Positions 41,811 to 63,681 of a DNA stretch of 64,000 nt are shown in pieces; the first letter of the stretch is position 1, and the number at the start of each line of letters is the position of its first letter. The notes below the pieces were generated by a model, which saw only the letters and a list, made by a program, of their open reading frames with translations, did not search any database and was not told the DNA's origin. Both the position numbers and the translations under genes were made by a program. Source of the DNA: Oscillospiraceae bacterium (GTDB lineage: Bacteria > Bacillota > Clostridia > Lachnospirales > Lachnospiraceae); NCBI GenBank assembly GCA_963640395.1, contig CAVHZH010000001.1:20835-84834 (forward strand), read 5' to 3'.

Positions 41811-42788
41811 TTACCCAAGCTGCAATAATCTGCGCGTGCCGAGCATCCACTCATCACGCTCTCTTGCAGTGCGGTAATCCTCCACTTGCGCGGTCAGCAG
41901 CCAGTTATTCACGCGCAGCCGACCCAGCACTTCCTCCAGCACGCCTGCATACCGGTCATCCTTCAGGATCACATGCACCTGTGCAGCAGTCTTAAATTTC
42001 ATCAATGCCGCTTTCAGTGCTGCCGTCGCCATCACACGAACCTCGTCATCCGACGGTGCACAGCACAACACCAGGTAAAGTACATGCTCCCTCGTCCGGA
42101 CGATCTCTCCGGCCTTGACCCGCGGGGTATTGCGCATAACACACTGTATCAGCAGACCGCCTATCAGATTTTTCCCCTGATCGAACAGCAAAACGCTCAG
42201 ATCCGGGTCATAATAGCGTTCCTTCGGGTGTATCGGATACAATGTAGTGCATGAATCCATCCTAAGGAGCTTTGTGACCGCACCGCTCGCCTGACTGACA
42301 CTAAGTCTGCGGAAAAATACCGTTTTCATCGTCTCCTGCATGCTGTTTTTGAGCCCTAACTGCATCGCCAGTGCCTGTATGTCGATCATCCATTCGCCGC
42401 CAAGCGGCTGCTTTTCACGAAACAGCCGTTCCTTGAAAAAACGCTCCTCTCCCGCGCAGATATCACTGCGTCCGTACTCGTCATTCATGTAGACTCCTAT
42501 GCGCACGAAATCATGTTCCGCAGCGTGTTCAAATGCAGCGACAAGCAATTGTTCTCCGATCCCCTGCATCCGACGTTGTGCCGAAACGCACAGCCAGTCA
42601 ATAACCAGAAGATCCTCATGCGCCGTAGCGATCAAAAGCCCTGCCGGGAGCTGATCCTTTGTCTGCTCATCCGATTCAATAGCAAGCAGCGCAAACGCAC
42701 CGGGGAATTCCAGCCGATCCATCATCATCAACGGATCCAAATCCAGCACGAATCCCCTTTGGTCACGTTCTAAACGTGCAATTCTCAT
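41811..42788 (-). CDS. tandem-GNAT-fold protein downstream of the kinase gene
   Basis: VIDWLCVSAQRRMQGIGEQLL; 4-nt overlap (ATGA) with the upstream gene. Confidence 0.75.
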   Translation of the reverse strand: MRIARLERDQRGFVLDLDPLMMMDRLEFPGAFALLAIESDEQTKDQLPAGLLIATAHEDLLVIDWLCVSAQRRMQGIGEQLLVAAFEHAAEHDFVRIGVYMNDEYGRSDICAGEERFFKERLFREKQPLGGEWMIDIQALAMQLGLKNSMQETMKTVFFRRLSVSQASGAVTKLLRMDSCTTLYPIHPKERYYDPDLSVLLFDQGKNLIGGLLIQCVMRNTPRVKAGEIVRTREHVLYLVLCCAPSDDEVRVMATAALKAALMKFKTAAQVHVILKDDRYAGVLEEVLGRLRVNNWLLTAQVEDYRTARERDEWMLGTRRLLQLG

Positions 42789-45700
42789 TTTTCCTCTCCC
42801 TTAAATAACATTTTCATGCTATACATGAAGCCTAACCGTTTCATTGCTGCTTTCTTATTTGTCATAATTACATCCGACATTACATCAAAGAATGTGTCCG
42901 GATCTTGCAATTTCACAACTGATACCTCATCCAGTGTCTGTTTAAACTCCGTCATCCTCTTAGATTGTATCTGTAAATACAGACTCAAAAATGCCTCTTT
43001 CTTTTCCTCCATATCAGGAGATTTCTCATCGTATGCCTGAGAAAATGTCTGATATGCCTCGCGCAGCTCTTTTCCTCTGTAGGAAGAATCATCCAGAAGC
43101 GATCCCAGTATCTTCTCTGAACCGGATGTCTCGATCATCGATTTCACAATACTATAGAACGGCAACTTCTCACTTGCATGTTTCACATAGTCCTTCATGA
43201 AATTATCATGGAAGGCTTCTGCCGCTTTTTGCTTTTCTTCATCAGGAGTCTTTTTCTCTTTCCACTTTTGTCTCAAGTCATGCAGCTGGTCACGCAGTTT
43301 CTGGATATTTTCTTTCGTTTCTGCCGTTTCCATCGGGTTAAGGTAGACTTTCTCCATATAATCCCACTTTGATTTTGACGATGCCGTCATTATCTGTTTT
43401 ACCATTTCTGCACGATCGATATTCTGTGGCATCTGCTCTTTGACTTGTTGATACATATCATCTCTGCCATTTCCCATAAGCATCAATGACACCCAGTCGC
43501 CTTGATCGCCTTCCTGTATCGCAGAGCTCTGCAGCCTGACGAGTTCCCGTTGAACCGTTTCAATCATCGTATTCATTTCCTCGATGGTCTGCTGTAAACG
43601 GATCTGGCTCTGTGAGAAATTCGCGATCACGGGTGGCAGCTCGAGACCCATCTCCTGTGCTTTTAACAGCACTACGGCAATACGTGCACCCGTATCCTTC
43701 GCGGTTCCCATCTGGAATACCTCATTGATCATCTTTCCGAGTGCCTCTCGTTTTTCCTGGTATTTCTCTTCCGGTGTATTTTGCAGCAGCAGATGGAAGT
43801 TGTGGCGGAAATCCTCCGCCATGCCGTATCCGGCTGCCAGCATCATCTTTACTACATGTGCCTGCTGTTCCTTATCGAGCGATGTTGCATTACCAAAATC
43901 AATGACTGTCATCTTATCATCATCAACCATGATATTGCCCGCATGCAGATCACCATGATAAAAGCCTTTGCCAAACACACCCTCTGTAACCCACTTATTC
44001 GACAGCTCCGTCAGATACTTCTGCCGTTTCGTAAGCGTAATCTGCATCTGCGCGAGCTTCTTGAATGTTCTGGAAAAATCTGCTCCCCTGCGCATATGTA
44101 TCGGTGCATTATTTGGCAGCGATTCCAAGTCTTCAGGTTTTTCCTTGTACATGCTGGCAATCTCCTCGCGGTAGGATGTGCGCACCTCATCCATATATTT
44201 ATCCAACGTGGTGCCTGACGCTTTCTCGAGCACCATTGCATTAGCCGTCGGCTCTACCAGCGGATTCACCTTCATTGCCTGTACCGTCTGCGCGCCTTCA
44301 TCATAGATCTTGCCGCGCTCTACATTCTGTGCCTCAAGCGTAAGATCCAGCTCCTCCTCGATTCGCATGAGCTGACCACGATAGGTCGCTTCCATACCAC
44401 CGATCTCGTCCATATTCTGACCATCCGGATGATCGGTCATTTTCGCACACATAAGCATGATCTCTTTCTCACGCATCATGTGGTTACGAACATTGGGACG
44501 CAGCAGCTTTACAACAACATCCTTCCCTTCCTCCGGCAGATCCGGTCCTTTTAATTTACACAGGAATGCCTGACCGACCGATGCCGCACCGAGTGCGCGC
44601 TCTACCTTGATATCAGTCACCTTTCCCTGTGAGCGTTCAATCATACTGCTCAGCTGTGCACGGACGAACTCCTCTGGGATCGGCGCGAGGTTGGAACGCA
44701 TATCCTTCAAAGCGCTTTTCAGCTCATCCGGCATAGAATCCAGCGGCATACCCTGCAGCATCTTCTGCAGCAACGGACCCGCTCCCTTTAACACACCGCC
44801 AAGATAATTGCCCATGACTTTTCTCTCATGTGCATCCTTTTCCTCCTGCGATGCATTCGGATCTACTTTCTCGAACGCCTTGGCACCTCGCAATGCAGAC
44901 GCCATCATCGCGCGCTGATCCATACGCGAAACACCCTTAAAATAATTCTTGAATACATTTTTTGTAAACAGACCCTGTCCACGCTCACCGCTCGCCGCCT
45001 GCTGCAGCTGGCGCTTGAGTTCTTCGGACGAATCCTTCTTCCACCGTTTTATTTCCGCCGGTGTGTTACCATAATTTTCACGGCGTACCTCTTTCTTCTT
45101 GTCCGTTGTATCTTCCTGTTCAGAGCTGAATATGGTATTTACAGACTCATTGATCTTCTCCTGGATGCTGTCCATGCTCTGCCCGACTGCCTGATTGATC
45201 TGCTCATCAAGATCCGCCAGCTGTTCCAGTGTATCCGGGAGATTAAGTGCTGTACCGAGTGCTGCCTTAAAGCCAAATTTTGCAAATGTCTCAAATGGAC
45301 CCTGCGCCAGCGACCGCAGTGTTTCAAGTGCCGGGAATTCGAGCATCTCGTTGATCGCATCCTTGACCTGCCGTTTCAGATCGGTCTGTTCTCCGTCCCC
45401 AGAATCCGGGAACGGCAATTTATCCAGCATACCGTCCAAAATACTCGGATCCTTCACAACATAAAACAATGCATCCATGTGATTTAAAATCACCCTGCGC
45501 ATTCGTTCCCCTGACTGCTTCCGGCGCAGTTCCCCGATCTGTGAAGTATCACCGGCTGCCTCCGCCTCACGCAGCTTTTCCATCGTACTGCGCTCGTTCT
45601 CATCCAGCTCCCACGTCTGCGTGGAAAAGAACAGGTCGGAAAGCAGATCTTTTACCTGACCCTCATGCTCGGTCCATCCCGCTCCCTGTTCCTCCTGCAC

Positions 45701-62688: not shown

Positions 62689-62739
62689 TGAAATATCCTC
62701 CTGTTTTCAATTAGTCTTTTTATTTGTTTCTATCCTATA

Positions 62740-63681
62740 TCAGACAGTCTGCCGATACGTATAAGATATCTTTCTCGCCTGAGGCGCCAGCCTTTGTATC
62801 ATTCGTTCTGACTGGTCATTGACCGCCTGCATAGCGATTCTTGTCTGCGGCGGATAAAGTGCCTGCGCATGTGCGATCACTGTTTTTATGAGTGTATTCA
62901 GGATCGCACGGTTGGGATCCCCGATCCATAGTGCACACAGGGTCAGCACACCGCAGCAGGAATGGTCGACCGCTGCGTATGCCTCAATCCTGCCATCCTT
63001 GACAAGTGCATAACTGAGCTCCCGTTCGATCTCCTTACTCGTGAGTGTCTGCTCCGGCTGCGGTGTTCCGAGCGCAACGCAGCGCTTTTGTGCCGCATGC
63101 AGCAGATCATCGGATAACTGTGAAAATGAATAGATGCCGTTATTTTTATCCCCGGATACTTTCGGCAGACTGACCGGCTTAAGATCCCCGAGCGCAAATT
63201 CATAGATATTCCGCCCGCCGTCACTCTCCTGTAAAAATCCCATTGCCTCCAGAAACGGAAGCATCGTCTCATTATCCGGCTCTGCCGTTGTAAACTGAAG
63301 ATCCACTTCCCCGATATCGGGTTCGTCCTCAATCAACGCCTCCAACTCACCAATCATACGGCGCGCGCCACCCTGCCGTCTGTAGTCCGGTGCCACATAT
63401 AGAGAGATCACGCGGAAGCAATCTCCCGAAAGATAACCTGCCAGCGCACCGCAGGCGACACCTTCCATTGCGATTCCCATAACCGTAATCGGTTCCCCAC
63501 TGTGCAGCGCCTCTGCAACCTGCGGCAGCAGCAGCGGCTCAAAGACCTCCAGCATAGCATCGTCAACGATGCCAAACTGCATCCGGGCATCCAGCCCGCT
63601 CTGATCTGCCTCCACCTCCGGAATTAAGTTCTGCTCCTGACTGCTATCCCTTAATCCATTGTCACGGCTGCTTATCTCCAT
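62740..63681 (-). CDS. tandem-GNAT-fold protein, paralogue B
   Basis: Near-identical to 60169-61110; ATG 63681 after GGGAGG. Confidence 0.82.
   Translation of the reverse strand: MEISSRDNGLRDSSQEQNLIPEVEADQSGLDARMQFGIVDDAMLEVFEPLLLPQVAEALHSGEPITVMGIAMEGVACGALAGYLSGDCFRVISLYVAPDYRRQGGARRMIGELEALIEDEPDIGEVDLQFTTAEPDNETMLPFLEAMGFLQESDGGRNIYEFALGDLKPVSLPKVSGDKNNGIYSFSQLSDDLLHAAQKRCVALGTPQPEQTLTSKEIERELSYALVKDGRIEAYAAVDHSCCGVLTLCALWIGDPNRAILNTLIKTVIAHAQALYPPQTRIAMQAVNDQSERMIQRLAPQARKISYTYRQTV

Follow-up and report, generated by a model that had tools for sequence, protein, structure and literature searches.

Introduction

Extracellular contractile injection systems (eCIS) such as Afp and the PVC loci combine a full structural operon and an Afp15-like ATPase with toxin-domain proteins that lack a Sec signal and have hydrophilic N-termini (PMC8213781, PMC9054023, PMC11297309). 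An open question is how the cargo of such a contractile injection system (CIS) is chosen and kept harmless before firing (PMC8213781, PMC11297309). Here we analyse a 64,000-nucleotide (nt) stretch of DNA, called the window (contig CAVHZH010000001.1, positions 20,835 to 84,834), in which an eCIS-type operon is accompanied by repeated cassettes that pair a gene for a tandem-GNAT protein with a gene for a large partner protein. These large toxin-like proteins are probably fired through the phage-tail-like injection needle, and their GNAT neighbours resemble chaperones or modifiers, each reserved for one injected protein, of a sort that has not been described.

How does this locus compare with what has been described? 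The Afp and PVC loci are the closest likeness, and Ntox11 and occasional DUF4157 proteins are found among the partners here as well. The differences are that the window's own genome has no match to DUF4157 (PF13699) and that cargo is here mostly encoded in dispersed cassettes, up to about 30 per genome, each with a neighbouring tandem-GNAT gene; published eCIS operons, by contrast, show a depletion of Acetyltransf_1 (odds ratio 0.40, 24 genes; PMC8213781 supplement). A dedicated partner is known for the effector Mif1 of the metamorphosis-associated contractile (MAC) system: JF50_12605 binds this single large effector, efficient loading depends on it, and it is absent from the particle, which makes it a precedent for an adjacent loading chaperone (PMC6748791). 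It is a single described pair, the available text of that paper does not mention a GNAT fold, and the likeness drawn here is one of described role. Adaptors and chaperones of type VI secretion (T6SS), namely Tec (DUF4123), Eag (DUF1795), DUF2169 and DUF2875, are likewise small accessory genes beside a cognate effector (PMC9054023), but they have different folds and serve spike loading in diderm T6SS; none of these four families matched the five GNATs of the window in a Pfam search at E 0.1. The RtxC/HlyC enzymes share a GNAT-like fold and are encoded with the large toxin that they serve, but they have a single domain, an acyl-carrier-protein (acyl-ACP) donor, type I secretion and one toxin family (PMC8339906), in contrast to the tandem fold with a coenzyme A (CoA) motif and the many unrelated partners found here. 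With that fold, with motif A and with no RTX or HlyC Pfam match, the proteins studied here stand outside the RtxC/HlyC group. The two-lobed fold itself is shared with VipF of Legionella (PMC10936415) and with GlmA (5kf1), Orf14 (2wpw), MAB_4324 and MshD, at 10-18% identity only and with motif A of the present family lying in the N-lobe. VipF is itself an effector, and none of these other tandem GNATs is known to be paired with cargo genes; the profile match with VipF covers only positions 40-102, with no stretch passing alone, and structural identity was 12%, which places the present proteins outside the VipF family.

No description of such pairs was found in the literature searched, from which subscription papers were largely absent; the original prediction, made from the sequence of the window, also described GNAT-fold partners as not known among CIS accessories. 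Term counts found neither "GNAT" nor "acetyltransferase" in the main texts of PMC8213781 and PMC11297309 and in 300,000 characters of PMC3482391, and the supplement of PMC8213781 was covered in part, such that single family members could stand there unrecognised. A report of eCIS in rumen protozoa-associated Clostridia mentions no GNAT pairs in its available part (bioRxiv 10.1101/2025.07.29.667580). The family is real and apparently undescribed, and is a probable accessory of a known kind of machine. It offers dozens of natural cognate pairs for testing models of chaperoning, acylation and immunity, serves as a marker for a dispersed effector repertoire that operon-proximal, DUF4157-based searches would miss, and suggests that Lachnospiraceae-like bacteria possess an extensive injection arsenal that has not been studied.

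Tandem-GNAT cassettes beside the CIS operon

The open reading frame (ORF) map and its translations place five GNAT genes of 283-325 amino acids (aa; G1-G5) and four large partner genes (B1-B4) on the minus strand, where they lie upstream of the eCIS-type operon (9872..41683, minus strand) and are read in its direction. The order of transcription is G5 (62740..63714), B4 (61150..62688), G4 (60169..61110) and B3 (58519..60126), then housekeeping genes, then G3 (55562..56437) and B2 (53803..55575/55584), then housekeeping genes, and finally G2 (48382..49233), B1 (42785..48325) and G1 (41811..42788), followed by the operon. This bears out the arrangement originally predicted, in which a two-domain GNAT gene of ~280-315 aa directly precedes a large protein four times and the largest partner has a fifth GNAT behind it that abuts the CIS operon: G1 overlaps the end of B1 by 4 nt, and a CIS13-like gene (39746-41683) is the first CIS gene after it. 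The region is not one operon, since conserved housekeeping genes separate the cassettes. B3 and B4 are 66% identical over nearly their full length and G4 and G5 are 81% identical, a tandem duplication as judged from these alignments. For this reason the window holds three partner types, not four with unrelated C-terminal parts as had been proposed; G4 is assigned to B3 as its cognate GNAT, and G5 to B4. A further GNAT-partner cassette lies about 3.5 kb past the Afp15-like ATPase of the CIS, on the same contig and outside the window.

The five GNAT genes belong to one family. A profile built from a search with G3 (114 sequences) recovered G1-G5 and six more members in the window's own genome, giving 11 at E < 1e-25 and 3 weak partial matches in addition. 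The six extra genes lie on five other contigs and just beyond the CIS ATPase, so that the predicted position next to the CIS holds for the window while the family as a whole is genome-wide. Five of these six adjoin a large signal-less protein, and the sixth follows a hydrolase-like gene cut at a contig end. Pfam Acetyltransf_1 matched the N-terminal half of G1, G3, G4 and G5, and did not match G2. An AlphaFold 2 model of G3 (predicted local distance difference test, pLDDT, 93) is a two-lobed GNAT, and its best matches are tandem GNATs at Z 17-19.5, led by GlmA 5kf1 (Z 19.5, root-mean-square deviation (rmsd) 4.0 over 265 aligned residues); Foldseek also matched the model to tandem GNATs (E 9e-14). 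The acyl-CoA-binding motif A is intact in 73 of 100 members, among them G1, G3, G4 and G5, and the N-lobe of these proteins, going by the motif, probably still binds acyl-CoA. G2 belongs to a clade that lacks the motif and that recurs together with the G1 clade near ABC1 kinases.

In the ESM Atlas, G3 matched only automatically named Bacillota GNAT clusters; single-protein locus scans found 5 and 3 loci; viral contigs searched for relatives of G2 gave none that was confirmed, and the RNA runs searched listed no holder. Fused forms were seen in three loci, in which proteins of 668-688 aa consist of two tandem-GNAT units with four lobes in all (L041:11171-13234, L037:2506-4572, L065:979-2985).

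Features of the partner proteins

A hydropathy scan of the partners found no signal-like or transmembrane (TM)-like hydrophobic stretch, as expected from the original prediction that they carry no signal peptide. That prediction also gave them Gln-rich N-termini, which holds for part of the set. When the 956 ORFs of at least 300 aa in the window's own genome were ranked by Gln content in their best N-terminal 50-aa window, the top 8 all adjoined a family GNAT, although only 16 ORFs do (p about 8e-16; the GNAT set was defined independently of Gln content). In B1 and B2 the enrichment is no more than moderate, with 10 Gln in 50. Across the loci fetched for comparison, in which other genomes are labelled below by G and three digits (G013, G192 and so on), 79 of 96 distinct GNATs have a neighbour that passes a filter for partners (encoded on the same strand, 300 aa or longer, non-hydrophobic, with a start rich in Gln/Glu/Asn), which also let in the CIS13-like gene in 4 rows with the true partner on the other side. 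Asp at position 2 occurs in 11 of 31 partner families versus 44 of 805, a statistic that was not used as support and is partly circular because the partners had been filtered on N-terminal Gln/Glu/Asn. One partner in G004 (L027:1936-5778) has a long Thr run as its leader in place of the Gln run.

The domains downstream of these leaders are of a kind expected for injected toxins. Pfam matches among the partners include ABC1 kinase, calpain-type Peptidase_C2, Ntox11 and DUF4157, together with HipA_C, Fam20C and PI3_PI4 kinase matches that all fall below the curated cut-offs. In one Pfam scan 18 of 30 partners had no domain at all, and new toxin folds are therefore likely among them. B1, a candidate cargo of 1846 aa, carries an ABC1/UbiB-type atypical kinase domain at residues 1209-1498 (43832..44701, minus strand; PF03109, E 4e-23) with catalytic-loop and DFG-like motifs present. 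B2, a candidate cargo of about 590 aa, has invariant kinase-like motif columns, a motif also seen in other partners, and its C-terminal half is probably a PI3/4-kinase- or HipA-like kinase; the low-confidence model (pLDDT 56) gave weak fold matches to Vps34, ATM and PI4K at Z under 8, and a search of the PDB with the B2 sequence returned coiled-coil noise only. The absence of a Sec signal, a hydrophilic N-terminal leader and an enzymatic domain, or in B2 a kinase motif, are thus combined in B1 and B2 as they are in eCIS toxins. B3 (535 aa, poly-Gln leader) and its paralog B4 (512 aa, Gln-rich leader) have no domain recognised by Pfam, and an ESM Atlas search with B3 gave no usable match.

Two unannotated helical modules recur among the partners. 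M1 (residues 86-177 of B1; 47786..48076, minus strand) is about 92 aa long, probably helical, common to otherwise different partners and without a convincing match in Pfam or the PDB. It occurs at E < 1e-10 in 9 of 400 genomes of the order, 8 of them with a sheath match, a count that leaves out weak matches near 1e-7 in 6 genomes. M1 was considered as a universal secretion marker and rejected, being absent from B2-B4 and found mostly with kinases. M2 lies at residues 171-300 of B3 (59227..59616, minus strand) and 153-282 of B4, and occurs also in unrelated partners of 386-2080 aa. Elsewhere in the window's own genome, on contig C106 (L093:2-2286), an M1-bearing partner cut at the contig end is followed by a family GNAT in pieces.

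Co-occurrence of the family with the CIS

The original prediction proposed to profile the GNAT family against sheath genes. In a scan of 400 genomes of the order the family was found in 10, and all 10 were among the 38 with a sheath match (nominal p 2e-11, an overstatement given the shared ancestry of the genomes and the limit of 6 scored candidates in each); 300 genomes scanned phylum-wide gave no family member and 12 sheath matches. These scans scored only 6-12 candidates per genome. The association follows one clade of CIS: where the sheath is at least 76% identical to that of the window, 9 of 10 genomes hold the family, versus 1 of 28 with a more distant sheath. Co-occurrence spans two families, and within two patchy genera (2 of 11 and 1 of 7 genomes) the GNAT family and the sheath are found in the same genomes. 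Six single weak family matches lie outside the genus. At the level of the genus, family matches at E 1e-8 were obtained for 20 of 22 relatives, and those of 18 are strong; a sheath was found in 15 of these 18, and the other three have different CIS-operon DNA on broken contigs. Four genus relatives without a detected CIS have 0, 0, 1 weak and 2 weak matches, one of which, in G011, is a partial true member. The cassettes are accordingly not common in CIS-less genomes, given that all strong carriers, in the order and in the genus, hold a sheath or other CIS-operon DNA. A search for the tube family in five CIS-less genomes gave no match anywhere, with controls silent as well.

The cassettes are gained and lost between conserved genes among close relatives and diverge faster than those genes; G192 alone has 33 family matches. 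Compared with G013, the GNATs are 69-79% and the partners 59-73% identical, while the housekeeping genes between them are 91-100% identical.

Several partners have eCIS-specific domains or neighbours. A family GNAT in G318 directly precedes a DUF4157 protein beside the CIS, and the loci of G318 and G013 both contain DUF4157. In G095 and G321, cassette arrays lie immediately next to the Afp15-like gene; additional Afp15-like ATPases, placed directly before partner-type genes, occur in G017, G095 and G321. Loading that depends on the leader requires Pvc15 (PMC9054023).

Correspondence between GNATs and partners

In a quick maximum-likelihood tree (93 rows, three long fusions excluded, SH-aLRT support only, many long branches), GNAT clades match partner families whether the partner lies upstream or downstream. 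The five G192 copies (support 100) and the Ntox11 pairs, which cross two families, are examples; all three Ntox11 partners go with one GNAT clade, and the GNATs beside calpain cores come from four separate lineages. Among G4-like GNATs whose classed partner is outside the B3 family, the four with the highest scores (110-138 bits, against 72 for the next classed one) are all neighbours of M2 proteins, which are 386-2080 aa long.

The original prediction suggested comparing cognate with non-cognate complexes. The predicted B3:G4 complex scored 0.49 versus 0.00 for the best control, with runs agreeing in at least 74% of contacts and partner pLDDT of at least 68. The mark set for this score was reached by 116 of 157 solved pairs and 2 of 215 mismatched pairs; the support is weak, because at scores of up to 0.60 the mark was reached by only 18 solved pairs and by both passing mismatches.

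A proposed cognate chaperone or adaptor for CIS cargo

Taken over all the explanations considered, the partners are very probably cargo of the CIS. The best explanation of the pairing, to which our analysis gives about an even chance, is that each GNAT is the cognate chaperone or adaptor of its cargo. The large proteins would be polymorphic effectors of this clade's injection system, encoded in mobile cassettes of two or three genes that flank the CIS operon on both sides and are also dispersed along the chromosome. With every cassette would come a dedicated tandem-GNAT protein that remains in the producer, binds its own cargo through the non-toxin part, keeps it soluble and quiet, and presents the hydrophilic Gln-rich leader to the Afp15-like ATPase for loading. 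Eukaryotic targets would fit the kinases, the calpain-like proteases and the entry for Ntox11, which is tabulated as PVC-exported and as having no immunity gene (PMC3482391). The part of the original prediction that saw effectors with chaperone or immunity partners is supported by the co-occurrence with CIS genes and by the cargo-type domains Ntox11 and DUF4157. As to the role of the GNAT, the sequence comparisons favour a chaperone or adaptor, possibly an acylating one, over immunity, since GNAT clades track partner families whichever gene comes first and more than one GNAT clade, indeed several, is found with calpain cores.

A number of observations weigh against this explanation. The retention of motif A in most members suggests that the proteins catalyse a reaction or bind a cofactor, neither of which is required of a pure chaperone. 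Published eCIS leaders are described as slightly positive at residues 6-21 (PMC11297309), whereas many leaders here look acidic or neutral. The pairwise identities of 12 GNAT-partner pairs correlate (rho 0.92), but physical linkage alone explains this mirror-tree value. Low scores were obtained for four further GNATs beside M2 proteins, and over the whole set the association of M2 with the G4 clade is not significant (p 0.086, 8 versus 58). As for distribution, G011, in which no CIS was found, holds one partial true family member, and related systems can do without the GNAT: G409 has a 77%-identical sheath yet no family gene; G058, also lacking the family, carries M1-kinase proteins where its more distant CIS ends; M1 proteins lack an adjacent GNAT in G192, G095, G406 and G350; and G220 has a B1-type kinase with neither a family GNAT nor a sheath match. 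The last of these is a protein of 3071 aa with M1 and an altered catalytic loop (L075:12742-20000, L076:1-3918).

Alternative explanations

An alternative that we regard as unlikely is that the partners are CIS cargo and that the GNATs are maturases in the manner of RtxC/HlyC, acylating their cognate cargo to activate it or to license its loading. The acylation site would be the N-terminus or a Lys/Arg-rich patch after the Gln run, and the part of the G2 clade would be that of a co-subunit without catalytic activity. RtxC enzymes, which are GNAT-like, acylate the toxin encoded in the operon to which they belong (PMC8339906), and the widespread motif A, the recurrence of G1- and G2-clade genes together around ABC1-kinase partners, the fused double units and the basic patches seen by eye after the Gln run in several partner families are all consistent with such a role. 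However, neither a catalytic residue nor an acceptor was identified, the motif pattern is failed by 27 of 100 members in several clades, RtxC uses acyl-ACP and has no CoA-binding elements (PMC8339906), and homologous cargo exists without any GNAT. The chaperone and maturase explanations are not mutually exclusive. A bolder and likewise improbable version is a per-cargo acylation code, in which a dedicated tandem GNAT, sometimes an active and a dead subunit together, would acylate its own cargo as a licence for loading or later activity, in a possibly cell-anchored contractile injector of gut Clostridia whose arsenal, spread over as many as about 30 cassettes, abounds in kinases and calpain-like proteases.

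Could the GNATs instead be immunity proteins or antitoxins, binding or acetylating the toxic core of the cognate effector and thereby protecting the producer and its kin? One-to-one pairing, the fast co-divergence from G013, the occurrence of a few GNATs without an obvious partner and the single GNAT clade shared by the three Ntox11 partners would all suit such a role, and immunity genes are known for some eCIS toxins (PMC8213781). We nevertheless hold it to be doubtful, more so than acylation. The GNAT usually lies upstream (of 96, 49 have a downstream partner only and 11 an upstream partner only), the same core, calpain or PI3K/HipA-like kinase, occurs with unrelated GNAT lineages or with none, and none of the 362 genomes of the order without a sheath match has a family member at E 1e-15, where orphan immunity genes might be expected.

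It is very unlikely that the GNATs are themselves injected acetyltransferases, co-delivered with the neighbouring protein. The tandem-GNAT effector VipF (PMC10936415) is among the fold matches of G3 (Z 14.2, rmsd 7.1, 259 aligned), but other tandem GNATs match better, the GNATs lack the Gln-rich leader of their partners, and an autonomous effector need not keep its cognate neighbour through flips of gene order. That the cassettes have nothing to do with the CIS, being intracellular toxin-antitoxin or signalling pairs or substrates of another route that merely share a lineage with it, is least probable of all: the majority of copies are distant from the CIS, the genomes that share them are related and thus not independent, FlhA is present in the four relatives tested (the missing match in the window's own genome is not proof of absence, because the assembly is in 144 contigs) and orphans exist in G220 and G011, but co-occurrence extends across two families and into patchy genera, the DUF4157, Ntox11 and Afp15-like neighbours are eCIS-specific, and WXG100 passed the cut-off in none of five genomes tested.

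The CIS operon and its neighbourhood

Pfam and NCBIfam matches identify in the operon a CIS13-like gene, predicted membrane or exported accessory genes, Pvc16, DUF4280, sheath, tube, CIS_tube, a VgrG-related gene, a spike OB gene, gp25, baseplate J and tail P2_I. With the Afp15/Pvc15-like AAA ATPase (3..1865, minus strand, running off the window), the cluster holds sheath, tube, baseplate, spike, Pvc16 terminator and ATPase together, as an Afp/PVC-type eCIS locus does.

The operon starts (28629-41683) with accessory genes outside the classic Afp/PVC sets: the CIS13-like gene (645 aa), a 281-aa gene, an 811-aa multi-TM protein, a MORN-repeat protein, a TolC/OEP-like protein of 697 aa and an exported protein of 1010 aa. 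This set is kept in G409 and G058. Products of the genes at 30036-38877 have predicted hydrophobic anchors, so that the machine is possibly cell-anchored; the accessory genes may anchor it in the envelope. Inside the structural operon, 20756-25175 encodes two proteins: one of 838 aa, rich in Gln/Glu, whose position is tape-measure-like, and one of 620 aa, rich in Lys, whose N-terminus is weakly tube-like. A signalling block (2245-9791) separates the baseplate genes from the AAA ATPase and comprises a histidine kinase, an anti-sigma ATPase, a SpoIIE/Cache phosphatase, a MATE-HATPase fusion and STAS; similar phosphatase genes recur beside cassettes in G192.

Other loci hold further CIS-type genes. 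A second Afp15-like ATPase of the window's own genome, in two frames, lies on contig C37 (L004:2533-7912) about 6 kb from a GNAT-partner cassette, and the four unannotated ORFs that precede it may be pieces of one large gene. A locus of G013 that is distant from the CIS (L100:6735-10114) has an additional Afp15-like ATPase with a DUF4157 protein directly upstream and no GNAT. The CIS operon of G409, a close relative without the GNAT family, contains a protein of >3000 aa with a signal-like start (L091:10929-20000). Finally, a roughly 50-bp intergenic stretch at about 19730-19870 of the window has counterparts at several further sites in G009, in some cases on both strands, which suggests a dispersed palindromic repeat.

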